A stretch of DNA of 64,000 bases from Verrucomicrobiia bacterium (GTDB lineage: Bacteria > Verrucomicrobiota > Verrucomicrobiia > Limisphaerales > UBA1319): NCBI GenBank assembly GCA_963664225.1, contig OY760937.1, positions 384,001-448,000 of the forward strand. The letters run 5' to 3'. A program made the translations under genes and the position numbers. The notes under the pieces are model-generated. The model made no database searches, was not told the origin of the DNA, and saw only the letters and a list, made by a program, of their open reading frames with translations. Shown here in pieces: positions 5-43,051 of the stretch; position 1 is the stretch's first letter; the number at the start of each line of letters is the position of its first letter.

Positions 5-3000
5 TTGATGAAGGTGCAATCACAGGTGATGGCGGAGAGCAATAGCAGTTATCAAGTCAGTTTCTCGCAAACAAATCTCATTGGATACGGTGGTGGGTGT
101 GACAATACGGTGACCAATACCAATTCGGCTTCCGTTGAAATGCCCTTTTACAAACCATTCCAGCTTACGGTTCAGGGATCAAATCTGTATTATATTCAAT
201 GTGATTTAACTGCGATGGCCGGAGTGAGTCTGATGGACGCTCGGAGAGTTCGCGATAATTTTCCCAACAACATCAAGTTTTTAATCAACGATGTGGAAGG
301 AGGCATGTTATCAGATTTCAATTACACAAATTCATGTGGCTATTATAGCAATTCGTGGAAAGTAGAAATACGGTGGGATGCTCGTCCGCGCTGGCGACTT
401 GATGATGACAGCAACGAACCGGATAGAGCGCCGGGTGATGGTTCCAGCCTGCAGCTTGGACCAGGAATGAGTCTTTCTACAAACCGTTCCCAGATTGAAT
501 GGAATGTTAGCTTGGGGCATCTTTTGGACAACAATTCGGCTGGCAAGCTTCGGCTGCTTAACAATGGTTTGTTTGCCTCGGTTTACACCCCATCAAATTT
601 GTTTTATACGTGCAAATCCACGAATATCCGCAGTCAATTGGAATTGGTGATTACAAATCAGATGTCTGGAGAACTGCGCCAGGTCAAAGCGCCACAGGCA
701 TTTGTCGATATTGTACCGGGAACGAACCAATATTCGCTGAAGTTTTACCATCCTTCGCAGGTGGGCAGCCAGACAAACAGTCAGGGGATTTACACCAATA
801 TCTCGGGAAACTATTTTGTAAGCTGGCAGGTGGTGAATCCGGACAATAATCCGGCAATTAGCAACCGATTGCATATCATTGAAAATCGCAACGGTTGGTC
901 TCGCACCAACATTCTTGAATTCAATTCAGCCTCAAGTCTTTGGACTTTGAAGGAAGGAGAAGGCAGTGAACAAAAAATTGAAACACGGTTGGTTTCATTC
1001 GCTTCGAACACGAGCGTTTCACCTGCACGCAGCAATCGACTTGAGACAGTTGAAATCAAATATTACGGAGGCCAGATTTCATCCCAAAGCATTGAAAAAT
1101 ATGAGTTGTTTCCTTGGGGCTGGAATCTTGTGGAAACCCGCCTTGATCCAAACGGGGCAAATCTTTCTACGCGAATGGAATATTACACGGAAGGAGAGCT
1201 GTACGAAATAGGTCGCGTAAAATATGTTTTCAATCCAAATGGAACCTGGGAAAAGCGCATATACAACGGTTGGGATTCAGGCGAGCCAGGAACCTTGGGT
1301 AAAGTCCTTAGGCCATGGAAAGACAGCCCTTTGACGCCTCAAGAGGCCGATGAATCGAATTCCCATAGAACAGAATACGCAGCTTATTCAGAAGAGGGTG
1401 TGCCAATGTACAACCGCCAGTATCTCTATAATAACGATACAGGTTATGATTTCTGGATTCGTGAGGAAACGTATAGTGAAAATCCGGATTATGGGGATAC
1501 TCTGGAGAGATTTGAAGGCAAACAAATCTGCGAGGATATGACTTTGAGTGTAGGTGCCTACCGAAGATTCTTTGCCCCAACCGCACCTTGGGGACTTGCT
1601 GATCATCCTTTGGAATGTTCGAAAAGCGGTGAACCGGTCCAATATTATTACTACGATCATGGTTCTTATAATCCCTCGACGCGGGTTTTTTCCTATGATC
1701 CCAACAATCATCTCTACACGAGCGACGCCTCTTTGGTCATCAATCCAGATCGACGTCAAACCATCATTTACTGCGGTTTGGAGTCGATGGATATTTACGG
1801 CCTAGAAAATGATACTTACCGCAACATTGGCGTACAGCTTTATACGATGGAAGACCATGTATGCGATCGTTTATTGTATTATTATGTAGGTCAAAGTTGG
1901 AAAGAAACCACTGTTTATTCGCAAGGACTTCCCGTTTTAAGGGAAAAATATGCTTGCTCTGGCACCAATGCATGGGGCGAACCAGTGTTTGAGTTGCTTT
2001 ACCAGGAGGTTCTCGCAAACGACACGTTAGGACATACCACGAATATCACACGCATGGACCCTGTCTCAGGTTTGCCACGCACCACCTATTCTGCGGATTA
2101 CCGTGGGAACAATGTGATGGATGGCAGTCTTCTGCTTTCCGAAATGGATGAGACTGGCAAAGAAACAGTTTACACTTATGATACGCTTAAACGCATAAAA
2201 ACCCGCACGATCAAGGGCATCTCAGCAATGGATGGTTATCCTTCACAATCGGACCAGATTACCACCTATGTATATGACGCCTCCGGTCGCACGCTTAGCG
2301 AAACCCAATCGGCAGGTTCGTTATCCATGGTGAATGCCTCGGCTTTTGACAAAACGGGAAGACTTACGTCTCAGACCAATTCGGACGGTCTCGTGACCAC
2401 GTTTGCCTATCCGGGCAACACTTCGGGAACAAATATCACCCTGCCTGGAGGAGCCACGTTGCTTCTCACCAATTATCTGGATGGACGGCTAAAATCGAAA
2501 ACTGGCACATCCACCATTGCCGAGTATTACGACTATGATCTGGACTGGCAATATTCTATGGGTCGTGTTCAAGATTATACAGTCAAGAGAATCGGAGCGT
2601 TGAATTCTGGTCGATATGTTAAAACCGGAATCGACTGGGTCGATAACCAGATATATGAGGAACGTCCGAGCTTTTCCTTGGAAGGAAATTACACAGTTTA
2701 TAAAGCAATGCCGGAAGGTTACCGCGTAACCAAAATGACCACAAATGATTTGGGTCGCGCCGTAACCGAATATGATGGTCTGGAGCGGACATGGCGCCAA
2801 ACGCTCCGTAAGTATAACGGTTTGGAGCCAAATTACTCGTTTGTCTATACAGACCCAGTTTCAGATGATCGAATAAGTCAGACTGATACTTACTTCAAGA
2901 AAATCGCCAATGTCTGGTATGAAGTGACGACAAATCTCACGTTTTTGACCTATAACGACTCAACTCCTTCCGTGACGAGTGTTGTCGAGAACCAAGTCAA

Positions 3001-5881
3001 TAACCTGAGCTCGACCGAAATTTCGAAAACCAGCCAATGGGATGCTTTTAATAACCTGACTATTAGCACTGTTACGGTTGATCGCACCAAAAAACGCACC
3101 ACCGAGACTCTTAACACGGCCCAGTCGGTCCAAGACGCCACCACAGTAAAGGTTAATGACCTTTTGCAAAAGGAAAACACCCCAACCGTTGCTGGTTATA
3201 TATGGCATTATTACGATGAGTTGGGGCGCGAGGTTCAAACGATCAATCCACAGGGGGCTTCGAGCCGCACTTTCTATGATGCGGTTACCGGTCAAATCAC
3301 CAATACCGTGGATTACACGGGGATGAGCACGGCCTCCGAATATTATCCGGCTACGCATCTCAATGCAGGACAGCTGAAATGCACCACGGCGGCGAACGGC
3401 AAAAAAACCTTTTATGAATATACCGCCCGGGGTGAATTGTCACGGACCTGGGGTGATGTGCCATATCCCGAGGAGCGAATCTATGATTCATATGGTGATA
3501 TGATTGAGTTGCACACTTACCGTGGCGGGTCTCAATGGGCTAACTCGACCTGGCCTGGAACAGGTGTTGCGTGCGATACAAACAAGTGGCTGTATCAGGC
3601 TGAAACCGGTTACCTTACCAACAAAGTGGACCAAACTGGTCACGCTGTAAAATATGCCTATCAAAATAATGGTTTGTTGAGCACGCGCCAATGGTCTCGC
3701 GGTGTGACAACGACGTATCTATACAACGAGTACGGCGATCTGACAGCGGTCAATTATTCGGATGGAACAACGCCCGTCGTGTATGTCAATGAGGCATATA
3801 CAAGTTATAATCGCGCTGGCCTCCCAGCTTTTGTAAGTGATTCTACAGGGGAGCATTTGCTATTTTACGATATTCTGGGCCGTCCGACAGGAGACGGGTG
3901 CACAGCGGGAACATTCGTAAATCTCTCCATAACAAACCATTATGACGCATTGTATGGGCGCGACTGGATAAAACTCCGGGTTAATAGCACAGATTTACTG
4001 ACCTCGACTTATGGATATGACGCTTATGGGCGGTTGAGTAGCGCTTCGTCAGGGGTGGATTCCGCTGCATATGCATATCAGAACAATGCAGATTTGCTGG
4101 CAACCACCTCGTTCAAACACAGTGGATCGTCAAAACTCACAACGAGTCGGACGTGGGATTATGGAGTTCGCCTACATTCCATTGCCAATAACTCCACGGG
4201 GTCTGTAAGCAGTCACGTCTATACCTATGATTCCGTGAATCGCCGAACGCGGGCCACCCAGACCGACGGGTCGGCGTGGGCGTATGATTATAATGACCGC
4301 AACGAGGTCGTTTCAGGCAAACGCTATTGGTCGGATTTCAAACCGGTGACAGGACAGCAATATGAGTATTGTTACGATAATATAGGCAATCTGAAAACCA
4401 ATTGGAGTGGCGGTGACGCCTCTGGTCAAAACCTCAGACCAACGGCCTTCACGGTCAATGGGCTTAACGAATATACCGGTATCACGATACCCAGTTATAA
4501 AGATGTGTGTGGCGTGGCCTACGCGAATGTCACGATCACAGTGAATGGGCAGTCCACAGATCGGAAGGGGGAATACTACCATTCCGAGTTGAGCGTCACC
4601 AATGTCGGTGGAGCCTTGTGGCAGACCGTGACGGTCGCTGGTGCAACGAATACAACAGGTAATCTTCTGATTGCTCCGTCATCCGCCACATTGGTGTATG
4701 ATAATGATGGCAATCTTCAACAGGACGGGCTGTGGGGATACACTTGGGATGCGGAGAATCGGTTGTCAAAAGTTGAAAGCATCAGCTCGTTGCCCAACTT
4801 TGCCAAGCGGAAGCTGGAGTTTGGCTACGATTACAAAGGACGTCGAATCTGGAGCAAGATATCCACCAATAACGGCAGTTATGTTTTGAGCCGGAATACC
4901 CGGTTCCTTTATGATGGCTGGAATGTGATCGGCGAATTGAATGCAACCAACAACGCCTTGGTGCGCTCCTATACATGGGGCCTGGACATGAGCCATACGA
5001 TGGACGGGGTCGGTGGCATTGGAGGACTGGTTCTGGTCGCCGATAACTCGAGCGGATCAACCTATTATCCCGCCTATGACGGTAATGGAAACGTCATGGC
5101 GTTAGTTAATGCATCTGATGCTTCCACGGCGGCCCAATACGAGTATTCGCCATTCGGCGAACTTATCCGTGCCACAGGGCCAATGGCCAGAACTAATCCA
5201 ATCCGTTGGTCCACCAAATACTGGGATGAAGAAAGTAGTTTGGTTTATTACGGATACAGATATTATAGCCCGAGTATGGAAAGGTGGATCAGTCGAGATC
5301 CTAGTGAGGAACAGGGAGGAAATAATCTATATGCGTTCTGCAAGAATAATAGTCTTAACGCAATTGATCCACATGGGGATATGCTTGAGGGACTGCTATT
5401 AGCGGAAGGGGATGATTTGGGTGGTGCGGTGGCGTTCGCTGCACGTGGGTATTCATTGTTGTCAAGGATTAGGAATGCGGTTGAGACTTATGGGCAAATT
5501 CAAAACATGACGGTGCAAGCTCTTGATGCCGTGCAAAACGGTGATGGTGACCGTCTCGAAGAAATGCTATCAGCAGGTGGAACGGCTCTCGGTAGTATGC
5601 TTTTGGGTAAAACAGTTGGAGTGGCGGTTGGAGCCGCTACTAGTAGAGCACTTGGTGACATTCTGAGTGACACAACGATATTTAAACGATGGATAAAATG
5701 TAGTCATGATCCGAATCTACCATTAAGTGCGTCAGATGCAAAAAAAGTATGGGCAAAACTGAAACAAATGGGTAAAACGCCAAAGTATCACGATAAAGGC
5801 CATTCCGATACCAAGTGGCAAGGAGCGCATATAAACGTTGATGGCGCCCACATTCCTGTAGATCCATCTTTTAAGCCATGA
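5..5881 (+). CDS. RHS/YD-repeat polymorphic toxin (probably 5'-truncated by the window edge)
   Basis: 1958-aa ORF whose frame is open to the left edge. Many YD-type repeats; RHS-associated core YEYSPFGE...YYGYRYYSP...RWISRDP...NLYAF..N...IDPHG; 167-aa variable C-terminus after DPHG (starts 5378). Confidence 0.95.
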   Translation: MMKVQSQVMAESNSSYQVSFSQTNLIGYGGGCDNTVTNTNSASVEMPFYKPFQLTVQGSNLYYIQCDLTAMAGVSLMDARRVRDNFPNNIKFLINDVEGGMLSDFNYTNSCGYYSNSWKVEIRWDARPRWRLDDDSNEPDRAPGDGSSLQLGPGMSLSTNRSQIEWNVSLGHLLDNNSAGKLRLLNNGLFASVYTPSNLFYTCKSTNIRSQLELVITNQMSGELRQVKAPQAFVDIVPGTNQYSLKFYHPSQVGSQTNSQGIYTNISGNYFVSWQVVNPDNNPAISNRLHIIENRNGWSRTNILEFNSASSLWTLKEGEGSEQKIETRLVSFASNTSVSPARSNRLETVEIKYYGGQISSQSIEKYELFPWGWNLVETRLDPNGANLSTRMEYYTEGELYEIGRVKYVFNPNGTWEKRIYNGWDSGEPGTLGKVLRPWKDSPLTPQEADESNSHRTEYAAYSEEGVPMYNRQYLYNNDTGYDFWIREETYSENPDYGDTLERFEGKQICEDMTLSVGAYRRFFAPTAPWGLADHPLECSKSGEPVQYYYYDHGSYNPSTRVFSYDPNNHLYTSDASLVINPDRRQTIIYCGLESMDIYGLENDTYRNIGVQLYTMEDHVCDRLLYYYVGQSWKETTVYSQGLPVLREKYACSGTNAWGEPVFELLYQEVLANDTLGHTTNITRMDPVSGLPRTTYSADYRGNNVMDGSLLLSEMDETGKETVYTYDTLKRIKTRTIKGISAMDGYPSQSDQITTYVYDASGRTLSETQSAGSLSMVNASAFDKTGRLTSQTNSDGLVTTFAYPGNTSGTNITLPGGATLLLTNYLDGRLKSKTGTSTIAEYYDYDLDWQYSMGRVQDYTVKRIGALNSGRYVKTGIDWVDNQIYEERPSFSLEGNYTVYKAMPEGYRVTKMTTNDLGRAVTEYDGLERTWRQTLRKYNGLEPNYSFVYTDPVSDDRISQTDTYFKKIANVWYEVTTNLTFLTYNDSTPSVTSVVENQVNNLSSTEISKTSQWDAFNNLTISTVTVDRTKKRTTETLNTAQSVQDATTVKVNDLLQKENTPTVAGYIWHYYDELGREVQTINPQGASSRTFYDAVTGQITNTVDYTGMSTASEYYPATHLNAGQLKCTTAANGKKTFYEYTARGELSRTWGDVPYPEERIYDSYGDMIELHTYRGGSQWANSTWPGTGVACDTNKWLYQAETGYLTNKVDQTGHAVKYAYQNNGLLSTRQWSRGVTTTYLYNEYGDLTAVNYSDGTTPVVYVNEAYTSYNRAGLPAFVSDSTGEHLLFYDILGRPTGDGCTAGTFVNLSITNHYDALYGRDWIKLRVNSTDLLTSTYGYDAYGRLSSASSGVDSAAYAYQNNADLLATTSFKHSGSSKLTTSRTWDYGVRLHSIANNSTGSVSSHVYTYDSVNRRTRATQTDGSAWAYDYNDRNEVVSGKRYWSDFKPVTGQQYEYCYDNIGNLKTNWSGGDASGQNLRPTAFTVNGLNEYTGITIPSYKDVCGVAYANVTITVNGQSTDRKGEYYHSELSVTNVGGALWQTVTVAGATNTTGNLLIAPSSATLVYDNDGNLQQDGLWGYTWDAENRLSKVESISSLPNFAKRKLEFGYDYKGRRIWSKISTNNGSYVLSRNTRFLYDGWNVIGELNATNNALVRSYTWGLDMSHTMDGVGGIGGLVLVADNSSGSTYYPAYDGNGNVMALVNASDASTAAQYEYSPFGELIRATGPMARTNPIRWSTKYWDEESSLVYYGYRYYSPSMERWISRDPSEEQGGNNLYAFCKNNSLNAIDPHGDMLEGLLLAEGDDLGGAVAFAARGYSLLSRIRNAVETYGQIQNMTVQALDAVQNGDGDRLEEMLSAGGTALGSMLLGKTVGVAVGAATSRALGDILSDTTIFKRWIKCSHDPNLPLSASDAKKVWAKLKQMGKTPKYHDKGHSDTKWQGAHINVDGAHIPVDPSFKP

Positions 5882-6405
5882 AGACAAACGGTTATCTTAT
5901 TGTATTAGATACGGTCACATATAACAAAGGAACACTAAATATATTGTATCGAGGGGTAGATCGTTTGCCACAATATCCTAGCAATATACTTAGTGAACGT
6001 GAGGCGAATGAATTTTATGTATTTTCCGGTGTGCGTCTCGATTCTGGACTTATAGAAACATTGAATCAAGCCACCGATCTCTTAAAAATGTTTGAGAAAT
6101 CGCCACGTAAGTATGAAATACTCTTTTGCTCTTTTGACGATGATCAAAAACAATATGAACAAGAAGGACATTTGTTGTTTCTTGGGGTAGATGTAGCATC
6201 AATATCAGGAGACTGCTGGTCGATAGTGAAAGATTACCCTTGTCATCAAGAAATGAAAAAATATTTACCACTATTAAATGAAAATGGTTTATTTTCTAAT
6301 TGCATAGTAGCACGGAAATATTTGATGGATTACCGATCCCAAAAACTTAATGATTATGATTTTCCATTCGAGGTAATCGCTGTCTATCGATTCAATGTAA
6401 AATAA
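5878..6405 (+). CDS. Putative cognate immunity protein for the RHS toxin
   Basis: 175-aa AT-rich ORF whose ATG overlaps the RHS stop (ATGA at 5878-5881), the standard toxin-immunity arrangement. Confidence 0.75.
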   Translation: MKTNGYLIVLDTVTYNKGTLNILYRGVDRLPQYPSNILSEREANEFYVFSGVRLDSGLIETLNQATDLLKMFEKSPRKYEILFCSFDDDQKQYEQEGHLLFLGVDVASISGDCWSIVKDYPCHQEMKKYLPLLNENGLFSNCIVARKYLMDYRSQKLNDYDFPFEVIAVYRFNVK

Positions 6406-6459
6406 GCGATAAAACCCTAAACAAATATGTAAATAATAAGATAATCGACTATTATATAT

Positions 6460-6888
6460 ATGAATGTTAAATACTGGATTCAAGTTGGAATGTCATTGAT
6501 GTGTATGTCATTGTGTCTGCGAGCACAAAGCGTAACGAACAATAATGCGTTTACTGGTTATAAGCCCAATATCGAAGGAAAGATGAGTGATCCTGAACGA
6601 AAGGCGCTTTTAGAAAGCCGAAAACAAGAGTTGCTTAAATGGGATAAGAACGGTGATGGCAAAATTGATGCGGGCGAACGTGAAGCATGGAAACGTGCCC
6701 GCCAGGAATATTACCTGAAGATCAAGAAACAAAAGCAAATCGAAAATCCTAACAACGAGGCTGCGCGTTTGCTTAAAAAGCATGATGTGAATCATGACGG
6801 ACATCTCGACCAAACAGAGAAATTAGCATTGGAAGCTGATTTGGCTGAAGTACAAGCTCGTAAACAGTCAAAAAATGCTGGAAAATAG
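6460..6888 (+). CDS. Secreted EF-hand domain protein
   Basis: Signal-peptide-like N-terminus (..SLCLRA|Q) and two EF-hand loops, DKNGDGKIDAGE and DVNHDGHLDQTE. Confidence 0.8.
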   Translation: MNVKYWIQVGMSLMCMSLCLRAQSVTNNNAFTGYKPNIEGKMSDPERKALLESRKQELLKWDKNGDGKIDAGEREAWKRARQEYYLKIKKQKQIENPNNEAARLLKKHDVNHDGHLDQTEKLALEADLAEVQARKQSKNAGK

Positions 6889-7078
6889 AGAGTCTCGGTC
6901 TGGATTCATGCAGGCATTCTTCAGGACAAGTGGCTATTGTAGTCGATCGAGTTGACATCTAACAGCCTTTACATTGCTCGGTTTCGACATTGATAATGGG
7001 GGAGTTCATAAATTATCATGTCAAGTGCTGGATGGCTTCAAAAGACTCATGACGCGCAGCGGAGTATATCATTTGCAA

Positions 7079-8860
7079 TTATTTTAACTGCCGCTTCACC
7101 GGCAGCAGATCGTCAGGCTCCTTCAAAATCACCTGCTGAACCTTTTTCGGTTCGTTGGAATTCTTTAATAATCCAACGGCCATTTTCTGTTCACGGTCTT
7201 TAATTTGCCTGTTTGCCTCGGTACTTGGCATGGCAAACGGCAGTTTTTTGTACAAACGGGTTAAAAAGGATTGCGCCATCTTGTCATTGGCAGGCGTTTT
7301 CTGAATGGTCGGTGTCACAATGGTGTGGGGAGTGGCCATTCCAACGAGCCGAGCCACGCCATGACGCTGTTTCTGATCATGCAGAGCCGCCATAGCCCGG
7401 AACATCTGTTCCTCCAGGGGGCGGAATTGGACGCTGGAAAGTTCTTTTCCAATGACTGGACGGAGAAAAGGCATTTCGGTTTCAGAACTGCCTCCGCCTC
7501 GCACGTTCATTTGGGACGTGCCGTCTGAATTAGCCTCCGAACTATTCCACGCGCTGGGGTCTTCTTGTGAGTCGTTAAGTATCATGCCGCTCGTGCTTTC
7601 GGTGCCGGTCAGACCGGTAAATTGCCCGGTGGCCTCGCTCCAGTTTTCGCTCCTGCTCCTAACGGTGCGGGTCTCCTCGACGTAATCCATCACCTTGGTG
7701 CTGTATAGCTCGTGTTTGATCTCGTCCGGGTTCATCACACCCATAAAGAGGTCGGTGGCAAGGGGACGCAAATTCTCCTCGCCGTGTGTTTCAAACACGA
7801 TCTTGCTCCGCGCGTTCGCCATGATCGAGTCATACACCTGGGGGCCGTTTGCGCCGGTATGGAGAATCTGGCGTGGAAATTGGTTGGCAAGCGTGAGGTG
7901 AAGCCCGAATCCGCGTGCCTGGTCGAGATTCTTGGCAATCGTCGGGGTCACGAAGTTCTGAAATTCGTCAATATAGACATAGAATGGTTTTACCTGGCGA
8001 GCATCAGTGCCTTTACCGCGTTCCTTTGCCGCCGTCCAAAGATCGCTCAAAAGCAATGTCGCAAACAGGGAAGCATCTTCCTCGGATACGCGAGCGCCTT
8101 CGGTTGAAAGATTGACGATGATTATCGAACCCTCTTCGAGCGCTTTGCCAAGATCAAGTGATGTGCCGTTCTGGCCGAACATGAGACGCAGCTTTTCATT
8201 GTGCAGGAAACTGTGAAATCGATTCACGGTGCTCGAAATCTGTGCGTCAAAATCCCTTGGTGTTAAGGCATTAGCGTAGGCCCAATCCTGAGCAACAGAA
8301 CGTTTGGATAGGCCAGCCGTCATCTGGAACCGGAGGCGCTTGTTGGTGCGGTCAATCAGATATTCCGATTCAAGGAGCGTCATCTTTTTCTCATATAACG
8401 TCCATAGGACATTGCTTCCGATACGAGCGAATAGGGGTGTTTTGTCGGTGCCGTCCACGCCCCAGACATACGACATGGCTTGGACAAAGTTATTCACGAT
8501 AACCGCAGGATCGGCCTTCATGCGCGGACGCATCACGTTGTATGCGACTGTCCAATCGGTTTGCCGTAAATCAATTGGGACAATGGGAACCTTTTTAAGA
8601 TACGGTTCCTGCCATGAAATCCAATTGATGAGGCTGTCGTATAACGATCCGTGGGGGTCGAGCACCAGGAGTCCGCACTTGCTTTGGGGCCATTTGGCGA
8701 TGTCCTGGCGGATGAGATATTCCAGCATTTTCGATTTGCCGGTGCCGGTCGAGCCGCAGATGTATAAATGCGTCGAACGCATCTCAGGGGTAATCTGGAG
8801 GGGAACCCCCTTACCGTCCACCACACCGAGCTTAATTTTATTGCCGGGAATGCGACGCAT
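7079..8860 (-). CDS. VirD4/TraD-like type IV coupling-protein family P-loop ATPase (HerA/FtsK superfamily), no N-terminal TM
   Basis: Walker A HLYICGSTGTGKS, LVLDPHG, Walker B YIDEFQNF, ARGFGLHLTLANQ. ATG at 8860 preferred over the TTG at 8881. Confidence 0.85.
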   Translation of the reverse strand: MRRIPGNKIKLGVVDGKGVPLQITPEMRSTHLYICGSTGTGKSKMLEYLIRQDIAKWPQSKCGLLVLDPHGSLYDSLINWISWQEPYLKKVPIVPIDLRQTDWTVAYNVMRPRMKADPAVIVNNFVQAMSYVWGVDGTDKTPLFARIGSNVLWTLYEKKMTLLESEYLIDRTNKRLRFQMTAGLSKRSVAQDWAYANALTPRDFDAQISSTVNRFHSFLHNEKLRLMFGQNGTSLDLGKALEEGSIIIVNLSTEGARVSEEDASLFATLLLSDLWTAAKERGKGTDARQVKPFYVYIDEFQNFVTPTIAKNLDQARGFGLHLTLANQFPRQILHTGANGPQVYDSIMANARSKIVFETHGEENLRPLATDLFMGVMNPDEIKHELYSTKVMDYVEETRTVRSRSENWSEATGQFTGLTGTESTSGMILNDSQEDPSAWNSSEANSDGTSQMNVRGGGSSETEMPFLRPVIGKELSSVQFRPLEEQMFRAMAALHDQKQRHGVARLVGMATPHTIVTPTIQKTPANDKMAQSFLTRLYKKLPFAMPSTEANRQIKDREQKMAVGLLKNSNEPKKVQQVILKEPDDLLPVKRQLK

Positions 8861-8937
8861 AGTAATCACAACATAAATCAAAAACTGTATAGTGAAGGCG
8901 TGATAATATCAAAACAGGAACAAAGCATGTTTGGAAT

Positions 8938-9657
8938 CTATTTTTTCTGAGCAACAAAAAAAACCAAATCGTTCGGGACATCGGATCTTTTTTCGAATGA
9001 AACAGCATGGACTTCAGAAAATCCTATATTCGTAAATGCTCGCCAATAATCATCGCAATTTCGGTCAAAATATGTAAAGGGCGCTGGATGCACGGATGAT
9101 CCTCTAATTTTAAATGGTGCCAAGTATGCCGTCCGACCATTCACCAATATCCGCTTAGCTTGTTGACGCCGATGGTTAAACCAGAAAACAGGATGTGGTA
9201 TGCAACCGATCAGCACACCCTTTGGTTTAAGCAAATCGTAAATTGATTCTGCAATTTCTTCAATGTTAGGTACATTGTGAAAAAACATGTTTGCAACGCA
9301 AGCATCATAACGATCATGTTCCTCCTTCGAATAGTCGAGAATATTGGTAGCATGGAATTTGAGAGACGGAAAATTCTCCCGCGCAATGGAAATACAATCG
9401 GAAGCAATATCAATGCCGACTACATCGAATCCGAGATTGTGAATATAATCCGAGAAAAAACCTAAACCGCAACCAACATCTAGAACAGTTCGCCCAGGAG
9501 AAACGTCACTTAATAGTTTGTATAAAAGTGGACACAAAATATTTTTATATGTTTGGTCTTGTCCAGAAAATAGTTCTTGGAATCGATATCGAGCATTACA
9601 ATCCCATTGTTTGGCAATGAAACTGAATGAATTAAAATGTTTTTGGGATTTCCTCAT
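8938..9657 (-). CDS. Class I SAM-dependent methyltransferase (small-molecule type)
   Basis: Motif I VLDVGCGLG, motif II VVGIDIA, YDACVANMFFH, LLKPKGVL. ATG at 9657 overlaps the end of the upstream gene. Confidence 0.9.
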   Translation of the reverse strand: MRKSQKHFNSFSFIAKQWDCNARYRFQELFSGQDQTYKNILCPLLYKLLSDVSPGRTVLDVGCGLGFFSDYIHNLGFDVVGIDIASDCISIARENFPSLKFHATNILDYSKEEHDRYDACVANMFFHNVPNIEEIAESIYDLLKPKGVLIGCIPHPVFWFNHRRQQAKRILVNGRTAYLAPFKIRGSSVHPAPFTYFDRNCDDYWRAFTNIGFSEVHAVSFEKRSDVPNDLVFFVAQKK

Positions 9658-10258
9658 GGAGTATAATGCTGTATGATAACACATCGTTTGCCAAAGCTAT
9701 GAGATGGGGATCGTTCGTGCTGCAGGTCCCGATAAATTCAATTAGTTCCGGTCCGGCAATTGCGGCCCCTGTAACTTTGCTTCGGCATATTATTTGCTCA
9801 AAACCATCATTCTTTAGAATTGAAAACTTATGTTGTGACTGCACGCAACTGGGTATTTGAAATACTGAAGCTCCTGACGCCCTAAGTTGTTGTCCTTGGC
9901 TCCCAATTATCTTCAAAAATAACCGCAACTGACCTTTTGATGCCTTATTCACCAAGGCTGAATGTATTTCATCCGATCGCGCCCAATCTAAGTCATCGCA
10001 ATAAACCGATAAGTCTCCTGGAATATTATACCAATCTCTAAAAAAGCCGATTAATTGTTTACTGCCAGGTTTGAATCGATAAACTGTTTTTTCGCGAACG
10101 AAAATAGCATAACCAATAAAAACGCACAAAATTGTTGCTGCAATACACTTCTGATATAGATTAGGTAGAAGTGGGGCAAAATCTGCTAAGCCCACTACGC
10201 CCATGATCACAAAAAATAAATGAATTAAAGCTGCCCGAGTTTGTTTTATCGTATACAT
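9632..10258 (-). CDS. Membrane protein: two N-terminal TM helices plus a soluble domain with a degenerate PLD-like pattern
   Basis: Hydrophobic segments at about aa 9-31 and 38-54. The remainder LSVYCDDLDW...ALVNKASKGQLRLFL...LRASGASVF...HKFSILKND follows a PLD-like strand/helix pattern but lacks a canonical HxK(x)4D. Confidence 0.6.
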   Translation of the reverse strand: MYTIKQTRAALIHLFFVIMGVVGLADFAPLLPNLYQKCIAATILCVFIGYAIFVREKTVYRFKPGSKQLIGFFRDWYNIPGDLSVYCDDLDWARSDEIHSALVNKASKGQLRLFLKIIGSQGQQLRASGASVFQIPSCVQSQHKFSILKNDGFEQIICRSKVTGAAIAGPELIEFIGTCSTNDPHLIALANDVLSYSIILHEEIPKTF

Positions 10259-10331
10259 ATAAGCTCAGCGATCTATTAATGCATATTAAATCAAAAATAG
10301 TTTAACAAGTTCTATAAAGTGATTATCTACT

Positions 10332-11786
10332 TTAAGTAAGAACCCTCTTTATTGGTTTAGTAAAGTTCGTCTTTGAATTGTTCACGGCTTCGCAAAATAT
10401 ATGTTCCCAATCTGATATGGTTAAATCTTTAAAAAGATCGGACCGGTTTGGATGACAAAATACAAATACACGACGACTTTTGTCGAGTAAATTGTCGGCA
10501 CCTTCATTATCATAAGACGGCACTACGAAATCTTTAGTTCGTTCATCTAATAACTTCATACTATTTATGGCAAACGTTTCATGTCCCGGTTTAACCGGTG
10601 TGTATTCCAGTAAAATGTCCCCTTGTTTGATAGTTGGAAGAACATGCCTAATTGCCTTTTCCAAATTATTTGCCTTTTGTAGGCATGTATCGATAGATGC
10701 GTGACTTTCATTCAAAATGCTTTGGAAAAATGTACTGGCGTTAGGTTTGGCATGTGAAACTGAAACACCAAAACGGTAAACCATTTTAAACAAAGCACGA
10801 TTTCTAAACAGGAACGGCTCTAAAAGCGAATGTAATCGAGGGTTTTTGATTGTTCGAATAATTTGATAAATATTATGAGAAACCTGATCGTCTTGCGAAA
10901 GCATTAATCTTTTTAGCTGCATTGGAGTCAGAAACTTCATTTTGCATAACAAAAATATAAGCGTCTTCATCATTGCTCCACACGCTCGCACCGTTTTGTG
11001 CCAATATACTTCGTTATACATTAGATTTCTAACTGTGATCAAAGTTGGAATATGTGATTCACTTTTTGTACTAAGGCAAATACTGGCATTTGCTTTATCA
11101 ATGTGAAGCCCAGCTAAGAACCGGTCTATGTCCAAAGCCAGACCGAAATTAACTCCACAATGGACACTATCTCGAATGAGGTAATCCATTTTATCGAGGT
11201 CAAGCACCCCGCTCAAAGCAGTTGCCATTACAGCAAAACCGCCAGGTAGCCCTTGACCTTTGATCGCCTTGCATACATCGCGAGGGTTGATGCCCCAACT
11301 CTTTTCAAGAATCTCGCGAATCTTCGTATGCATGATGAGGTGATCGGCTCGATCTTCATGTTTTTTGAGGTTTATTCCTGGTAATTGCCCAATTTCTTCA
11401 ATTAAGTGAGAAAATGGATAGTGGCCTATGTCATGCAAGAGGGCACTTGCAATTAAAAGTTTGACCATGTCGGCGGGGCTTTGCGCAAACTCATAAAACT
11501 CATCTCGTTCAAGCAATACCTTGGCATATTTTAGGCTTAGTGCGTAAGTTCCCAGAGAATGTTCAAAACGCGTGTGAACGGCTCCAGGATATACAAAATA
11601 CGTTGGACCAAGTTGACGAACTCCACGTAATCTTTGAAATTCTTGAGTTTCAATGATTTGAAGAACTTCGTTGGCAACAGGGACACTGCCTGATACAGGG
11701 ATTCTTAAAGTGCCACTGAATGTCAGGATCCTCTCCAGCGACAGGTCTTTCTTAATCGCATGCTTCGATGTGCGTTTTGGTTTCAT
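10332..11786 (-). CDS. HD-superfamily phosphohydrolase, SAMHD1/EF1143-like dNTP triphosphohydrolase family
   Basis: FQRLRGVRQLG..YFVYPGAVHTRFEHSLG, ALLHDIGHYPFSH, LDLDKMDYLIRDS, RNLMYNEVYWHKTVR. ATG at 11786 (484 aa) preferred over the upstream TTG. Confidence 0.92.
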   Translation of the reverse strand: MKPKRTSKHAIKKDLSLERILTFSGTLRIPVSGSVPVANEVLQIIETQEFQRLRGVRQLGPTYFVYPGAVHTRFEHSLGTYALSLKYAKVLLERDEFYEFAQSPADMVKLLIASALLHDIGHYPFSHLIEEIGQLPGINLKKHEDRADHLIMHTKIREILEKSWGINPRDVCKAIKGQGLPGGFAVMATALSGVLDLDKMDYLIRDSVHCGVNFGLALDIDRFLAGLHIDKANASICLSTKSESHIPTLITVRNLMYNEVYWHKTVRACGAMMKTLIFLLCKMKFLTPMQLKRLMLSQDDQVSHNIYQIIRTIKNPRLHSLLEPFLFRNRALFKMVYRFGVSVSHAKPNASTFFQSILNESHASIDTCLQKANNLEKAIRHVLPTIKQGDILLEYTPVKPGHETFAINSMKLLDERTKDFVVPSYDNEGADNLLDKSRRVFVFCHPNRSDLFKDLTISDWEHIFCEAVNNSKTNFTKPIKRVLT

Positions 11787-11941
11787 TCGTAGAGGTATTG
11801 GTGAATGACTTCGTACCAGAAAAATAAGGACGAGCAACTCTAAAATAGAAATTAATATTGTTTTATAAAACTGAGCTGTGGAAAAACCGATGGATTCGAT
11901 AAGAATGAGCAATTAAAGAAAAGAATGTATTTACCTTTGAT

Positions 11942-12736
11942 TTATATGGTTTGATTATCGTTTAATGTATTTTTAGAGCGGTGTGTGGTCATAAAAATGT
12001 GCGCATCAGGGATTGTGATCCCGTTTCCTTCCCACCAATCTCGCGTTCTTGGGACGAAATCGGTTGCTAAATTGAGTGTCCTGCCACGAATCGCCGTCCG
12101 ATAACGCTTTGATCTTCGGTTGTAACCGCCAGCCGTCACTTTCTTGCCCTCTTTGGAATACCAGGATATCTGGGGAATTGTTTTGAAACTCGTGTCGAAA
12201 CGGTAAGATGCGACCGTCAATCCTTCGATCCAATAATACACATGGCCGAAATATGCCGCATGAATCCATTTTTCCCACAGTCGGGGTGTGTAGCGATTGG
12301 CGTCAAGGGCCGGTGTCCACTGCAAAAGCCAAAGCACATAAATTCCTCGTTGGTGGTAATCAATCGTCCGGCGCATGATTGTTTCGATCGAAAGGGAACT
12401 GATCTGAACCTCGATGGCGACAGGGACGCCATTGATAATGGCGCTTACGTCAGGGCGGACAGTTTCAAGCGGTCGCTCAATGGCGACATTGTGAACGCCA
12501 GGCTCTCGCTTAAGCGCCTCGAAAATCTCCATTTTGCAGCGCCGATGTGTCTCGCTTTCACCCTCGGCAAACTTGCACGCGATCGGATTGGCGTGGGCAA
12601 AATGATTTACGCGATTTCTGCCGCATTTAAGGATCACATCCTCGTTGCATTGAGGACAGACGAACGGCGCATTCCGTTTTGATTCAAGATATGCGGTCAC
12701 GACTTGACCGTCTGATTTTCGTTTGGCGCAGAGCAT
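11942..12736 (-). CDS. CoiA-like PD-(D/E)xK nuclease with N-terminal Zn-binding motif
   Basis: CPQC...HFAH...C...ESETH followed by RPDV...AIEVQIS. Confidence 0.85.
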   Translation of the reverse strand: MLCAKRKSDGQVVTAYLESKRNAPFVCPQCNEDVILKCGRNRVNHFAHANPIACKFAEGESETHRRCKMEIFEALKREPGVHNVAIERPLETVRPDVSAIINGVPVAIEVQISSLSIETIMRRTIDYHQRGIYVLWLLQWTPALDANRYTPRLWEKWIHAAYFGHVYYWIEGLTVASYRFDTSFKTIPQISWYSKEGKKVTAGGYNRRSKRYRTAIRGRTLNLATDFVPRTRDWWEGNGITIPDAHIFMTTHRSKNTLNDNQTI

Positions 12737-12779
12737 GTTCTGAAAAATCGATCAAATTATATCACGCCGCCTGTAGGTT

Positions 12780-12812
12780 AAAAAAGGACCCCTCCCGAAA
12801 AATGGAAGGGGC
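12780..12812 (-). terminator. Probable intrinsic terminator after ardC
   Basis: Minus strand reads GCCCCTTCC-loop-GGAGGGGT-CC-TTTTTTT. Confidence 0.55.
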
Positions 12813-12817
12813 TTGAA

Positions 12818-13672
12818 TCACTCTTTGACTTCGTTGATATCGCCTGCGGACGCGCCAATGATGTAATCAGCGGCTTTTTGCGCCTGGGCTGCTGCTTGAA
12901 CCATGAGCGTCCGATCACTGCGCAACTTTACGAGCCAGTTGTTAATATACGCAGCCGAGTTATCAATCGTTCGATCCACGATCTCTGCATATCCACAGAG
13001 AAACGCGCTGCCGAGTTCGGCGATCAATTCCTCGCGGGCATACGGGTCTGATCCGAAGCCGGTGTTTTCGACAAGCGTAGCGCGATGCAACCGCGATTTG
13101 TGGCCTGTCGAATGCACCAGTTCATGAAAAATCGTCGCGTAATAGCTCGTCTCGTTGTCGAATCGGTCAGGAACCGGCATTCCGACCTCATCTGCCGATG
13201 GGGCATAGAAAGCGCGGGTCATGCCGTGTTTGATCACGGGCGGTTGCGGCATCCTCGCCACAATTTCCGCTGGTTTCGTAACCGCAATCGAAATGTCTTC
13301 CGCTGCGGGTGGTGTTTTTAACCCCTCGCATTGCGAAATGTTGAATACGTGATACACGCGGAGCAAAGGAATTTTGTGTTCCTTGCCGGTTTCGTTGTCT
13401 TCAACCTCTAACGGTTTCCAAAAAACGACCGGACATGCTTTTTCGCCTTTGCTGACTGAACCGCCAAGCTCCGTGGCCTGGTGGAATGTCAGCCAGAAAG
13501 GGGATTCGTAGCTCATGGCTATGAGCAAAAATATATTCACGCCACGATACGGTCTTTTGGTGATGAAATTCCGTGGCAAGCCGGTTTTTGCTTTCCACGG
13601 CTTATGCCAGGGAATGGTGCCTTGCTCAAGCAGGGCAATGATTCGTTCGTTGATGCGGTCATAGGCATTCAT
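12818..13672 (-). CDS. ardC: ArdC-family antirestriction / ssDNA-binding protein with zincin-like domain
   Basis: LEQGTIPWHKPW, PRN..TKRPYRGVN, WLTFHQA..LGG.V.KGEK, HELVHSTGH, YAREELIAELGSA. ATG at 13672 with GGAGG upstream. Confidence 0.92.
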   Translation of the reverse strand: MNAYDRINERIIALLEQGTIPWHKPWKAKTGLPRNFITKRPYRGVNIFLLIAMSYESPFWLTFHQATELGGSVSKGEKACPVVFWKPLEVEDNETGKEHKIPLLRVYHVFNISQCEGLKTPPAAEDISIAVTKPAEIVARMPQPPVIKHGMTRAFYAPSADEVGMPVPDRFDNETSYYATIFHELVHSTGHKSRLHRATLVENTGFGSDPYAREELIAELGSAFLCGYAEIVDRTIDNSAAYINNWLVKLRSDRTLMVQAAAQAQKAADYIIGASAGDINEVKE

Positions 13673-13755
13673 AGACCGTGATCCTCCATTGGGATGTAAT
13701 ACCGGAGATGGCGAACACGCCACAATTCGCAACGAGTGGTGCAATGAAGATCCAT
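13669..13755 (-). pseudogene. 28-codon internally deleted remnant of the 14222-14551 gene, still translationally coupled to ardC
   Basis: Translates MDLHCTTRCELWRVRHLRYYIPMEDHGL*, matching both the start (MDVHCSTCGEPWDTFHL) and the end (EDHHL*) of the 109-aa gene; its stop overlaps the ardC ATG (ATGA). Confidence 0.7.
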
Positions 13756-13813
13756 CGTATCTCCTTATGGTTATGTGGTTTGATGAAGAACTGACTCCAG
13801 TTTTGCATTATAC
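13742..13813 (-). promoter_or_regulatory. Repeated promoter/RBS unit, copy A (upstream of the mini-ORF and ardC)
   Basis: Minus strand TGGTATAAT...TGGAGTCAGTTCTTCA..AAACCACATAACCATAAGGAG-6nt-ATG. Shares exact 21-nt and 16-nt blocks with copy B. Confidence 0.75.
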
Positions 13814-13905
13814 CAGACGATGTTCGAGGACAGGTAGGGCGCGGCGGTGGTTACATTAAGTCGAGGAAAGCAGTCAAGGCGTGCAAACTTGCCGTTTGGG
13901 GCAAG

Positions 13906-13934
13906 AAAAGGAGCGACCCGAATGGATCGCCCTT
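13906..13934 (-). terminator. Probable intrinsic terminator after the 13941-14225 gene
   Basis: Minus strand GGGCGATCC-ATTC-GGGTCGCTC followed by CTTTTC. Confidence 0.5.
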
Positions 13935-13940
13935 GTGAAT

Positions 13941-14225
13941 TCAATCGCTCGGCATCATGACCTTTGTCACGGAGCGATTCGGCACTGTGATGACAAAGAA
14001 TGGCATGTCATTGTGGTCGTGATAGACCGATATGAGAATCAACCCCCTTTCGAGGTTAAGATCGTTCTCTAATCGGTCGTCACTGCTTAAATTGCCCCAA
14101 TCGCTCATTTGATGACGAATGACTGCTGAAATGATTTCATTCAGAGTCAGGCATTTAAGGGCGTTGGGTGTTACCATGAGTTGACCAAGAGGGAACTTGG
14201 CGATTGAATTGACGGCTGCGTTCAT
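13941..14225 (-). CDS. Small plasmid/ICE-associated conserved protein (paralog of 16261-16560)
   Basis: KFPLGQL..TPNA...RH..SDWG...D...N...SVY...ITV.NRSVT.VMMP pattern; ATGA overlap with the upstream gene. Confidence 0.75.
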   Translation of the reverse strand: MNAAVNSIAKFPLGQLMVTPNALKCLTLNEIISAVIRHQMSDWGNLSSDDRLENDLNLERGLILISVYHDHNDMPFFVITVPNRSVTKVMMPSD

Positions 14226-14551
14226 AGGTGATGATCCTCGAAGGTTGCAGCCAATCCCTCCTGGTCCTTGCCCAAAAGCTGTTCAAGGACTGCTTTTGTT
14301 TTTACGACCTCTGGGTTGGGTTTTGCATCCTTGGGACAGCACGGGCAACGAGTGACGTTGATCACGCTTTGCCCGAACTCCCAGCCGACCGCCCGAAATT
14401 CCTTCCGGTAACGGTCGTTTAATTTTTGAGACTGGGGAAGAAAGTCCCACGCTTCGGCTTCCTCAGCACTCAATCCTGTCTCGAATATGGCTTCGTGCCA
14501 GAGATGAAATGTATCCCATGGCTCGCCACAGGTGGAACAATGAACATCCAT
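14222..14551 (-). CDS. Small Cys-rich (probable Zn-binding) mobile-element protein
   Basis: 109 aa with CSTC and CPCC motifs; strong RBS (AAGGAG) and TATAAT upstream. Confidence 0.75.
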   Translation of the reverse strand: MDVHCSTCGEPWDTFHLWHEAIFETGLSAEEAEAWDFLPQSQKLNDRYRKEFRAVGWEFGQSVINVTRCPCCPKDAKPNPEVVKTKAVLEQLLGKDQEGLAATFEDHHL

Positions 14552-14610
14552 GATAACTCCTTATGGTTATGTGGTTTCAGTGAAGAACTGACTCCAATGA
14601 TCAATTATAC
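14538..14610 (-). promoter_or_regulatory. Repeated promoter/RBS unit, copy B
   Basis: TATAAT (14604-14609, minus strand) plus blocks CTCCTTATGGTTATGTGGTTT (14557-14577) and TGAAGAACTGACTCCA (14581-14596), identical to copy A (13761-13781 and 13784-13799). Confidence 0.75.
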
Positions 14611-14782
14611 ATTACACAGGTGCGGAGATGGATGTTGATAGCGAATATGGTCGGTTACAAATGATAGGGTGAACTTACAATATATCTTCTAGGCCCAATT
14701 CTTTTGAGGATTGAATATGTTTGACTCAGATGGGTTATCAGGATTAAAATTGCATTAACATTCTAAAAAAGAAGAGATAAAT

Positions 14783-15073
14783 ATGTCATACACATACCTG
14801 TTTGAAACTGCCAGCGAACCATTTAAATTGTCAGTTTGGACTAAAGGAAGAATTATTCAAAACTTCGATCCAAAGGTATGGAGATACGATGAGTGCGGAA
14901 ACGTCATGAGATATAGCGAACATGGCAATTCAGATTCAGAATACGGCTGGGAAATCGATCATATTATGCCCGTTGCCCTTGGCGGAACCGATGATCTGAG
15001 CAATCTCCAGCCACTTCAATGGGAAAACAATCGTAGTAAAAGCGACACGTATCCTTGGCATTGCGGACAATAG
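14783..15073 (+). CDS. HNH endonuclease
   Basis: GWEIDHIMPVALGGTDDLSNLQPLQWENNRSK; GGAG-like RBS (GAAGAG) upstream. Confidence 0.9.
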   Translation: MSYTYLFETASEPFKLSVWTKGRIIQNFDPKVWRYDECGNVMRYSEHGNSDSEYGWEIDHIMPVALGGTDDLSNLQPLQWENNRSKSDTYPWHCGQ

Positions 15074-15108
15074 TTGAAAAACGGGCAACCGTTTAAAAGT
15101 TTTTAACG

Positions 15109-15708
15109 TCATCTGAGTTGGGCAACTGTCCATCCGATGGGTTCACGGTAAAGTTCAGCGATATCTCCCATAATAAGGGAATACATTTGGACGTTGTATT
15201 CCTGATTGTCTTCGTGCTCCCGTTTGAGGCGTGCAGCCCAATTAGCGTCTCGAACAACAATTTTTGCATTACTGCAATCAAAAGGCAGTTCGTCACATTT
15301 AATTCTCCACTCGCGTTCCCAGGTAAAGTCGGAAAAAGACAATCCGTCGCGCAATTCAAACGTAACATGACGCCATTGATAACTATGAGGTAGTTCATTA
15401 TATTCCGGCGCAGGCTGATAGATCACCGGCCGACCACCTCGTTCAAAAAGCAATTTCTTGGAAACCATGATTCCGAATGGCGAATATTTGGAATAGAAAT
15501 CCTGGTTCACTAAGCCGTCTTGGAGACTGGACAATGGTGCCTCGGAAAAACACACGCATCGATGGCCTCCCTTAATCTTGTTACTGCTGCCAATTAATTT
15601 CTTATCATGAATAATCTTTTGAAGACGTTTAAAGGCTTTTTCGTCGGTTGTGTCGCGCGTAAAGTGAATTAGGTATTTGGAAATGTCTGGTCGGATCATG
15701 GAAAACAT
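15109..15708 (-). CDS. AbiGi-like protein (predicted ADP-ribosyltransferase fold)
   Basis: LIHFTR, VCFSEAPL, YSPFGI.VSK..LFERGGRPVIY, DFTWEREWR. Start uncertain (15699, 15708 or 15753). Confidence 0.7.
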   Translation of the reverse strand: MFSMIRPDISKYLIHFTRDTTDEKAFKRLQKIIHDKKLIGSSNKIKGGHRCVCFSEAPLSSLQDGLVNQDFYSKYSPFGIMVSKKLLFERGGRPVIYQPAPEYNELPHSYQWRHVTFELRDGLSFSDFTWEREWRIKCDELPFDCSNAKIVVRDANWAARLKREHEDNQEYNVQMYSLIMGDIAELYREPIGWTVAQLR

Positions 15709-15926
15709 ATCACTACAGTTTTGATAGAGAAGAAACAGAAGAATTACATTCATTCCTCATTTTATCGGCATTTGAGATGTCTTCAGAATTTTAAATGCAC
15801 TCAGAGTGCTGGATGATGCAGCTCGTTTGGCTGAGAGTGGGGTTCGAAAGCCCCCTGGGGGAGGAATCCGGCAGGGGGTTGGGGGTCGGGGAGGACGTCG
15901 CACCCCCCCCCATTTGCCAAAGCACG

Positions 15927-15953
15927 AAAAAACCCCGCTTTTTAGGCGGGGTT
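15927..15953 (-). terminator. Intrinsic terminator after the 15969-16244 gene
   Basis: Minus strand AACCCCGC-CTAAAAA-GCGGGGTT followed by TTTT. Confidence 0.7.
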
Positions 15954-15968
15954 ATTTCGTCGCTGCGG

Positions 15969-16244
15969 CTATTCCGCGCTCGTGCTTTTCTCGCGAGAAT
16001 CCGTCATCTCGCGTATATCCGTGCGAATCTCGCCGATGAAATCGGCGATTGCCTCACGGTTTCCCTCAACCTTGTCCTCAACCTCGGCAATCCGACTGTA
16101 GAGGCGGGATTCTGTCGCGTCTATGCGCTCCTCCAGCCTTTCGAAAGAGCGTGCGATGGAGATGGCGATGTCGTCGCCGTTCTTGTAAATAACGCGCTCG
16201 ATGAGTTCGAGGTCTTTCTGCGTTAAACCTGTATAATTGGTCAT
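15969..16244 (-). CDS. Small coiled-coil hypothetical protein
   Basis: 91 aa with heptad pattern FERLEERIDATESRLYSRIAEVEDKVE; lies in a minus-strand run and is followed by a terminator. Confidence 0.7.
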   Translation of the reverse strand: MTNYTGLTQKDLELIERVIYKNGDDIAISIARSFERLEERIDATESRLYSRIAEVEDKVEGNREAIADFIGEIRTDIREMTDSREKSTSAE

Positions 16245-16260
16245 GGTGTTTGTTCGTTAG

Positions 16261-16560
16261 CTAATAATCTTCGGGCAGGAGAACCGTTGTCGCGGTTCGG
16301 TCTGCCTCCGTAATGATCCAGAATTTCACGGCATTTCTGCCGTGATACACCGAAAACAGACGGCCACCGCCCCAGAGTGCGGAATCGTTGGCCTCGCTGT
16401 CCTCGGGACAAACATCGCCCCAATCACACCCTGCATGGCGTAAAAGGCTGGCATGGATGTCTTCCGGTTCAATCGTGCGCATGGCATTTGTCGTCATGAC
16501 GATCTGGCCAAGCGGGAATTTCGGATTCAGATGCCTCGACAGGAAACTGAAGTTGGTCAT
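16261..16560 (-). CDS. Small plasmid/ICE-associated conserved protein (paralog of 13941-14225)
   Basis: KFPLGQIVMTTNA...RHAGCDWGDVCPED..AN..AL..GGRLFSVY...FWIITEADRTATTVLLPEDY. Confidence 0.8.
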   Translation of the reverse strand: MTNFSFLSRHLNPKFPLGQIVMTTNAMRTIEPEDIHASLLRHAGCDWGDVCPEDSEANDSALWGGGRLFSVYHGRNAVKFWIITEADRTATTVLLPEDY

Positions 16561-42288: not shown

Positions 42289-42293
42289 TTCTT

Positions 42294-42893: not shown

Positions 42894-43051
42894 CGATCAG
42901 CGAAACGGTTGCAAATGAACGAAAACCGTGTGAATGATCATGCATGGTACGCACGACATTTGGAAACGGTGTGGCGAGCGCGGTTGGAATGGTTGGATTC
43001 GTTTAATTTGGAGAAACCCAAAATCTAAATTTGCCTCGTAAAAGGTTTGTC

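Follow-up and report, generated by a model that had tools for sequence, protein, structure and literature searches.

The stretch of DNA analysed here, a 64,000-nt window of contig OY760937.1 from a Verrucomicrobiia bacterium (hereafter, the window), carries at positions 8938-11786 three adjacent genes, for a SAMHD1-like HD protein, a small membrane protein and a methyltransferase. Do these genes belong together and, if so, what could the three products do in a mobile element? We found that the trio is a recurrent unit and the cargo of an integrated conjugative-type element. From the predicted proteins and their gene context, we give a probability of about one half to its being an undescribed, horizontally mobile conflict module, which would act against phages or other mobile elements in the manner of abortive infection.

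Organization of the three genes

The genes are co-oriented on the minus strand, span 2.85 kb, and are transcribed in the order HD, 2TM and MTase. The HD gene (10332-11786) encodes 484 amino acids (aa) from an ATG at 11786, and its product is similar to (d)NTP (ribo- or deoxynucleoside triphosphate) triphosphohydrolases of the SAMHD1/EF1143-type HD group. The 2TM (two-transmembrane) gene (9632-10258) encodes 208 aa, with a transmembrane (TM) hairpin at about residues 7-55 followed by a degenerate phospholipase D (PLD)-fold domain at about residues 58-203. The MTase (methyltransferase) gene (8938-9657) encodes 239 aa from an ATG at 9657, and the product is a class I protein dependent on S-adenosylmethionine (SAM), of the small-molecule type. 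A gap of 73 nt (10259-10331) lies between HD and 2TM, and the MTase gene starts 26 nt before the end of the 2TM gene, or 53 nt before it when the MTase start is placed at 9684, from which its longest open reading frame (ORF) runs. A longer, TTG-started HD ORF extends to 11912; the ATG at 11786 is backed by the N-termini of homologues, and M1 of the 2TM protein by the conservation of M-x-x-I-K-H/Q at the N-terminus. An AT-rich spacer of 155 nt (11787-11941, minus strand) precedes the HD gene and presumably contains the promoter of the operon; promoter calling gave no strong consensus match in it. The GC content is 0.392 in the trio, compared with 0.531 in the window, 0.517 in the left flank gene and 0.505 in the right flank genes. 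An initial annotation of this DNA had described three co-oriented, tightly packed genes, more AT-rich than their neighbours, and the coordinates and base composition bear out both parts of that description.

Recurrence and distribution

A metagenome scan with the HD protein returned five loci with 58-62% identity (L024-L028). The genes HD, 2TM and MTase were found in the same order in L025, L026 and L027, which are three further distinct metagenome loci. L028 is identical to L027 in its ORFs and their coordinates, and the two were counted as one locus; L024 stops 32 nt past the HD gene, so no judgement on the trio was made there. Between 2TM and MTase, a spacer of 2 nt is left in L025, and the two genes overlap by 4 nt in L026 and L027, compared with 26 nt in the window. 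When 78 loci were searched with a 2TM-family profile and an MTase profile, only the trio loci were matched, the window's own included, and neither profile matched any of the 66 loci whose HD genes are distant (about 35% identity). Since the same three genes stand in the same order in L025, L026 and L027/L028, the arrangement is not due to chance, and the trio is a recurrent unit; that the genes might never co-occur elsewhere, a concern raised in the initial annotation, is not the case. Moreover, database entries for HD, 2TM and MTase came from contigs of matching size (12340 and 4404), and entries for a 2TM fragment and an MTase had a contig size of 1987 in common. From these matching sizes we infer three more instances of the trio, one of them comprising 2TM and MTase only.

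The flanks differed in every locus: IS66 was found in L025, an EndoU toxin in L026, a YgjP-like peptidase in L024 and, in L027, a protein that combines an Hsp90-like region with a PycC-like cyclase domain. The GC content of the trio was below that of its flanks in all four loci compared. The PycC-like neighbour in L027 (9116-11638, minus strand) has 840 aa, with the Hsp90-like region followed by a C-terminal PycC-like class III cyclase domain (PADLOC PycC, 3.3e-9); its gene is convergent with the trio, on the opposite strand and about 1.9 kb away. The CoiA-like and coupling-protein-like neighbours seen in the window were considered as further parts of the system and rejected, since neither is found next to the trio in L024-L027.

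The distribution of the genes bears on a simpler explanation, namely housekeeping control of the nucleotide pool, or three neighbours brought together by chance. SAMHD1/EF1143-type enzymes regulate deoxynucleoside triphosphate (dNTP) pools in some bacteria, and in Gemmatimonadota loci the distant HD genes are solitary, as would suit such a role. Nevertheless, the HD protein had no match in any of 40 relatives, of which 1 belongs to the same genus, 9 to the same family and 30 to the same order, and was matched in only 6 of 400 genomes of the phylum, distantly, at 34-43% identity, and this disfavours a housekeeping role in this lineage. With the 2TM family profile, no other carrier was found in the 400 phylum genomes. 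The recurrence of the same gene order with different flanks, the low GC content of the trio and its place inside a mobile element also speak against this explanation, and we regard it as very improbable.

The membrane protein

The 2TM protein had no match in Pfam, PADLOC, NCBIfam or PHROGs, and 50 aligned relatives gave no Pfam or PADLOC match at meaningful levels. A full HMMER scan of 1.84 billion representatives collected a family of 164 representatives at E ≤ 1e-3, mostly of about 200 aa, and, judged by these relatives, the protein is the founding member of an unnamed family. A word-index search with it returned only the protein itself (1 of 252 candidates); no relatives were detected in genome contigs with the 2TM query or in plasmids by tblastn with the window protein and P0133, and none were found in viral contigs with the HD query or a degenerate motif pattern.

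The hydrophobic segments of the protein are located at residues 7-32 and 36-55, and a crude hydropathy count gave two such segments in 104 of 150 family sequences. In agreement, the AlphaFold2 (AF2) model, with a mean confidence (pLDDT) of 88.5, has two long N-terminal helices followed by an alpha/beta domain. Structural comparison with VIA-align assigned a PLD fold to this soluble domain: the Z score was 13.2 for Zucchini (4ggj, root-mean-square deviation 2.7, 134 aligned), 12.4 for NucT (6ehi), 11.9 for PPK1 and SauUSI, 11.7 for 1bys, 10.7 for the sugar-binding domain of TrmB and 10.6 for FAM83B, and the top 23 rows were all PLD-fold proteins. Foldseek matches to PLD-fold proteins had E values from 1.4e-5 to 1e-3; taken together, the Foldseek and VIA-align matches included Zucchini, NucT, Nuc, TrmB, FAM83 and the C-domains of PPK1, and the matches in BFVD were generic PLD-fold viral proteins only. 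The domain had no sequence-level match to the Pfam PLD families, and the family-alignment profile, run against the PDB, gave nothing beyond matches between the TM hairpin and CorA at chance level (E 0.33). In the ESM Atlas, the protein matched unnamed clusters at 0.93-0.94; a weak match to DUF5919 (0.85-0.86) was kept as a lead only.

Next, the catalytic motif of the PLD superfamily, HxK(x)4D(x)6GSxN (HKD), was sought in the soluble domain and was not present. The corresponding stretch reads H143-K-F-S...D151-G...I-C-R-S-K, with Phe at the Lys position and I-C-R-S-K as the GSxN segment; this mapping was made by eye from the strand pattern and is not a residue-level structural alignment. The catalytic-His position (H143) is occupied by His in 51 of the 150 family sequences, and W76, Y77, G81, C87, D89, W92, S146, I157 and R159 are kept in 131-148 of them. 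Because the HKD motif is lost, the sequence suggests that the PLD-fold domain is catalytically degenerate and more plausibly a sensor than a phospholipase or a nuclease. The prediction of a two-TM, PLD-like protein in the initial annotation therefore stands as to the hairpin and the fold, with the qualification that the PLD catalytic motif is lost.

A different reading of the same protein is that of an active, membrane-anchored PLD nuclease or phospholipase, comparable to Nuc, Zucchini or the restriction-type PLD nucleases, which would be the executing enzyme of the system. Its fold does match those of Zucchini, NucT, Nuc, SauUSI and BfiI, with Z scores of 9.6-13.2, and in the window protein H143 at the catalytic-His position is followed by D151-G152. 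However, the replaced Lys and GSxN segment, a His kept in a minority of sequences in which other residues are nearly invariant, and the lack of a sequence-level match to PLD families make this quite unlikely.

The sensor interpretation gained from relatives in which the N-terminal part is exchanged. P0169 (309 aa) has a TIR domain of the CAP12/Pycsar kind at residues 5-124 (PF10137, 1.5e-28; PADLOC TIR Effector, 2.5e-42; PycTIR, 4.5e-31), followed by a complete PLD-fold domain at residues 168-309, and no TM hairpin. The PLD-fold domain of P0169 is related to the 2TM family by BLASTP (6e-18) and by hhalign (probability 99.9, E 7.5e-35). Further variants are P0242 and P0271, with a TM hairpin and two tandem PLD-fold domains, and P0202, with one TM segment and a coiled coil before the PLD-fold domain. 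The exchange of TM and TIR effectors on one soluble domain is a pattern of the ligand-gated suicide effectors in the cyclic-oligonucleotide-based anti-phage signalling system (CBASS), the pyrimidine cyclase system for antiphage resistance (Pycsar) and Thoeris. As a TIR domain or a TM hairpin alternates here before the same soluble domain, the analogy argues that the PLD-fold domain would be a ligand sensor and the TM hairpin the killing part. The sensor probably acts as a dimer, and the tandem copies in P0242 and P0271 fit the dimeric habit of PLD folds. The initial annotation had likened the protein to 2TM effectors joined to a ligand-binding domain; the TIR fusion in P0169 gives that idea independent support.

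The HD protein

The HD protein matched the Pfam HD family (PF01966, 1.2e-9) and, among PDB sequences, 2hek from Aquifex (3e-31), EF1143 (2o6i, 3e-25) and SAMHD1 (about 2e-23), which agrees with its earlier description as SAMHD1-like. The motifs QRLRGVRQLG, HTRFEHSLG, LLHDIGHYPFSH and DKMDYLIRD were present. In the alignment, R73, H76, H118, D119, H122, H127 and D201 correspond to SAMHD1 R164, H167, H206, D207, H210, H215 and D311, respectively, and the complete H...HD...D metal site and the QLG/HTRFEHSLG motifs, already recognized in the initial annotation, thus all align to catalytic residues of SAMHD1. In addition, E46, Q51 and R54 align to SAMHD1 D137, Q142 and R145, residues with a role in guanine-nucleotide binding. 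The dGTPase models of NCBIfam scored 29.9, 24.4, 16.5 and 15.9 bits, below their cut-offs of 152-439 (NF003701 included), and the dGTPase profile of PADLOC gave a weak match (4.5e-5) that covers residues 84-172 only. By these comparisons, the protein is a member of the SAMHD1/EF1143 branch and not of the Dgt branch.

The HD protein has eight close relatives, with identities of 56-64%; all others found are at 43% or lower. A tree was built from 124 sequences, the 120 nearest listed homologues and four locus HDs, and in it the HD proteins of the trios formed one clade without a kinase domain, apart from kinase-HD fusions. These fusions are the nearest large group of HD relatives (36-43% identity) and differ from the trio HDs in having the kinase. 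They have about 770 aa, with Pkinase, HD and PF19276, contribute 93 of the 124 sequences of the tree and are found in bacteria and archaea; a search of open-access papers and bioRxiv found no paper on PF19276.

The methyltransferase

The MTase matched Methyltransf_23, 12, 25 and 11 of Pfam at 1e-16 to 1e-14, above the cut-offs, and its motif I, VLDVGCGLG, and D83 are invariant in 11 sequences; the SAM methyltransferase of the initial annotation was therefore correctly named. By its Rossmann-type fold, glycine-rich motif I and acidic motif II, the protein belongs to the class I SAM-dependent methyltransferases; the AF2 model had a pLDDT of 90.4. The top Foldseek matches were XrdM (8rdl, 9.6e-16), ToxA (5je1, 1.9e-14), glycine/sarcosine N-methyltransferases and GNMT, and the neighbours listed were small-molecule or uncharacterised SAM-dependent methyltransferases, with none named as a DNA or RNA methyltransferase. 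Weak matches were obtained with PADLOC MTase_II (0.0016) and a PHROG for DNA methyltransferase (7e-5). Among 108 candidates, only 7 were close homologues (51-63% identity), and these track the trio. In its modelled structure the protein is nearest to N-methyltransferases of the small-molecule type, which are not DNA methyltransferases. ToxA is the N-methyltransferase of toxoflavin, a GTP-derived heterocycle, and XrdM is a natural-product N-methyltransferase as well.

As the nearest solved relatives of the MTase are these two natural-product enzymes, the trio could alternatively be a small cassette for making a methylated nucleoside or nucleobase natural product, or for the producer's resistance to it; HD would dephosphorylate a nucleotide, the MTase would N-methylate it, and the membrane protein would export the product or immunise the producer. 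We find this unlikely: a hairpin of two helices joined to a cytoplasmic PLD-fold domain is not known as an exporter architecture, the TIR fusion in P0169 does not fit export, and no further biosynthetic genes are conserved beside the trio.

The mobile element around the trio

The 20 kb upstream of the window were read, and a large serine recombinase gene was found directly after metG, followed by a second DUF87 ATPase, a DnaG-type primase, a Replic_Relax relaxase and then the Rhs toxin gene of the window. This upstream part of a conjugative-type element (L068, G000:C1:364001-384000, positions 5588-16388) continues in the window at 7079-13744. There, the trio is flanked on the left by a gene for a coupling-protein-like ATPase of the DUF87/TrwB type (7079-8881, minus strand; Pfam) and on the right by a gene with CoiA_N and CoiA_nuc domains (11942-12736, minus strand; Pfam), after which comes ArdC (12818-13744, minus strand; Pfam). 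Given the recombinase, relaxase, primase and coupling-protein-like ATPases around it, the trio is carried as cargo by a conjugative-type element integrated beside metG. The suspicion in the initial annotation that the genes are mobile-element cargo was thus well founded, with the low GC content and the differing flanks of the other loci in agreement. An empty integration site was sought in a genome of the same genus (G401); this genome shares only metG with the locus, and the right border of the element was therefore not placed. Contigs from three sequencing runs had the same sequence at lower cover, and no variant without the trio was found in them; no RNA run was found to contain the stretch.

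The location of the trio gives grounds for another explanation, in which it is cargo that serves anti-defence or supports transfer: HD and the MTase would destroy or modify the immune signalling nucleotides or the dNTP pool of the recipient, and the membrane protein would work at the entry site. The trio stands between ArdC, an anti-restriction gene, and the coupling-protein-like ATPase, co-oriented with both, in an element that has a relaxase, a primase and a recombinase. On the other hand, no conjugation genes flank the trio within the 8-12 kb covered in L025, L026 and L027, and the fusion of the sensor with a TIR NADase is typical of host suicide effectors and not of proteins for anti-defence; we consider this explanation unlikely.

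Comparison with known systems

The initial annotation had not recognized the combination as a named system. In keeping with this, PADLOC v2 gave no system-level match, and no description of the gene combination, or of a PLD-fold sensor joined to a TIR or 2TM part, was found in open-access papers and bioRxiv. Individual PADLOC v2 matches were those of the MTase to mad2 (1e-19) and of the flanking ATPase to mad8 (7e-20), both over generic domains only, and this ATPase is absent from L025-L027.

The effectors of Pycsar, CBASS and Thoeris are similar to the proteins described here in architecture: a C-terminal soluble domain follows an N-terminal TM hairpin or, as in P0169, a PF10137 TIR domain. 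They differ in the sensor, which here has a PLD fold and is not a cyclic nucleoside monophosphate (cNMP)-binding, SAVED, STING, SLOG or Macro domain, and in the partners, which here are HD and the MTase, with no cyclase, CD-NTase or ThsB-type generator in the trio. Specifically, Pfam and PADLOC found no PycC cyclase in the trio, and a PycC-like domain was nearby in one of four loci (L027); Pfam, Foldseek and VIA-align gave no cNMP-binding domain in the 2TM protein. With the PLD superfamily, the soluble domain has in common the fold, including that of the non-catalytic TrmB sugar-binding domain and of FAM83 (DUF1669); the differences are the loss of HKD, the lack of a Pfam PLD match and the TM hairpin, which is new for this fold as far as the searches show. 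In TrmB and FAM83 there is precedent for a PLD fold that binds and does not catalyse.

The anti-phage dGTPase (Tal et al. 2022, as summarised in review PMC13276650) and human SAMHD1 have, like the HD protein, the (d)NTP triphosphohydrolase fold with the H...HD...D site. Here, however, the enzyme is of the SAMHD1/EF1143 branch and tied to two partners, whereas the known systems are single genes. According to the review (PMC13276650, 2026), the roles of SAMHD1-like proteins in bacterial defence are still to be found.

Proposed function

Taken as a conflict module of the abortive-infection type, the trio could work as follows. From its catalytic site, HD is predicted to hydrolyse (d)NTPs to nucleoside and triphosphate; HD and the MTase together might process a small molecule derived from a nucleotide, and this molecule would control the PLD-fold sensor and so gate the TM hairpin. 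Depletion of dNTPs is an established antiviral mechanism, and HD might provide it as a second arm. A more specific version is signalling immunity, in which HD and the N-methyltransferase would turn a (deoxy)nucleotide into a methylated nucleoside-type messenger, or triphosphate would be released as a cue. The PLD-fold sensor, a domain not recognised before, would read this signal and in turn control a membrane-breaking TM hairpin in the window protein and a TIR NADase in P0169. We hold this version with low confidence. The nucleotide-centred defence cassette of the initial annotation is, on the whole, partly supported: the unit, its mobility, the folds and the SAMHD1-like HD were recovered, with the PLD-like domain turning out to be degenerate.

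Several points weigh against a conflict module of this kind. Conflict genes do occur near the trio (the Rhs toxin in the window, the EndoU toxin in L026, the PycC-like domain in L027 and IS66 in L025), but in the four loci inspected this may be a coincidence. Since the trio lies beside ArdC in a conjugative element, its place would also be in keeping with a role in anti-defence or transfer, and the window protein retains His143, so that residual catalysis may be possible. The operon contains no cyclase or other known signal generator, and the signalling scheme is therefore without precedent. The family link to the HD and MTase genes was seen for a narrow trio clade only (about nine HD lineages). 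Finally, there are the mad2 and mad8 matches of the MTase and the flanking ATPase, and the dGTPase match of HD is weak (4.5e-5).

If the trio is a defence module, a catalytically dead PLD fold would join the few sensor domains by which TM and TIR suicide effectors are gated, and an enzyme of the SAMHD1 branch would be linked to bacterial immunity, a possibility that is still open according to review PMC13276650. The HD and methyltransferase partners would then suggest a signal chemistry unlike that of cyclic nucleotides and ADP-ribose derivatives. At 2.85 kb, the operon is small and self-contained, and hence directly clonable.

Other genes in the window

The Rhs toxin gene at 5-5881 (plus strand) encodes an Rhs/YD-repeat protein of 1958 aa with a C-terminal toxin tip, and overlaps by 4 nt a 175-aa ORF (5878-6405, plus strand) that has no Pfam match and may be its immunity gene. 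Within the element, a 214-aa ORF at 15109-15753 (minus strand) had no match in Pfam, PADLOC or NCBIfam and a weak PHROG match (3.6e-4). Farther along, positions 42285-44121 (plus strand) contain genes for a LigT-like 2H phosphoesterase (202 aa) and, past a 111-aa ORF, a Zeta-toxin-like kinase (252 aa), which may be another conflict pair.

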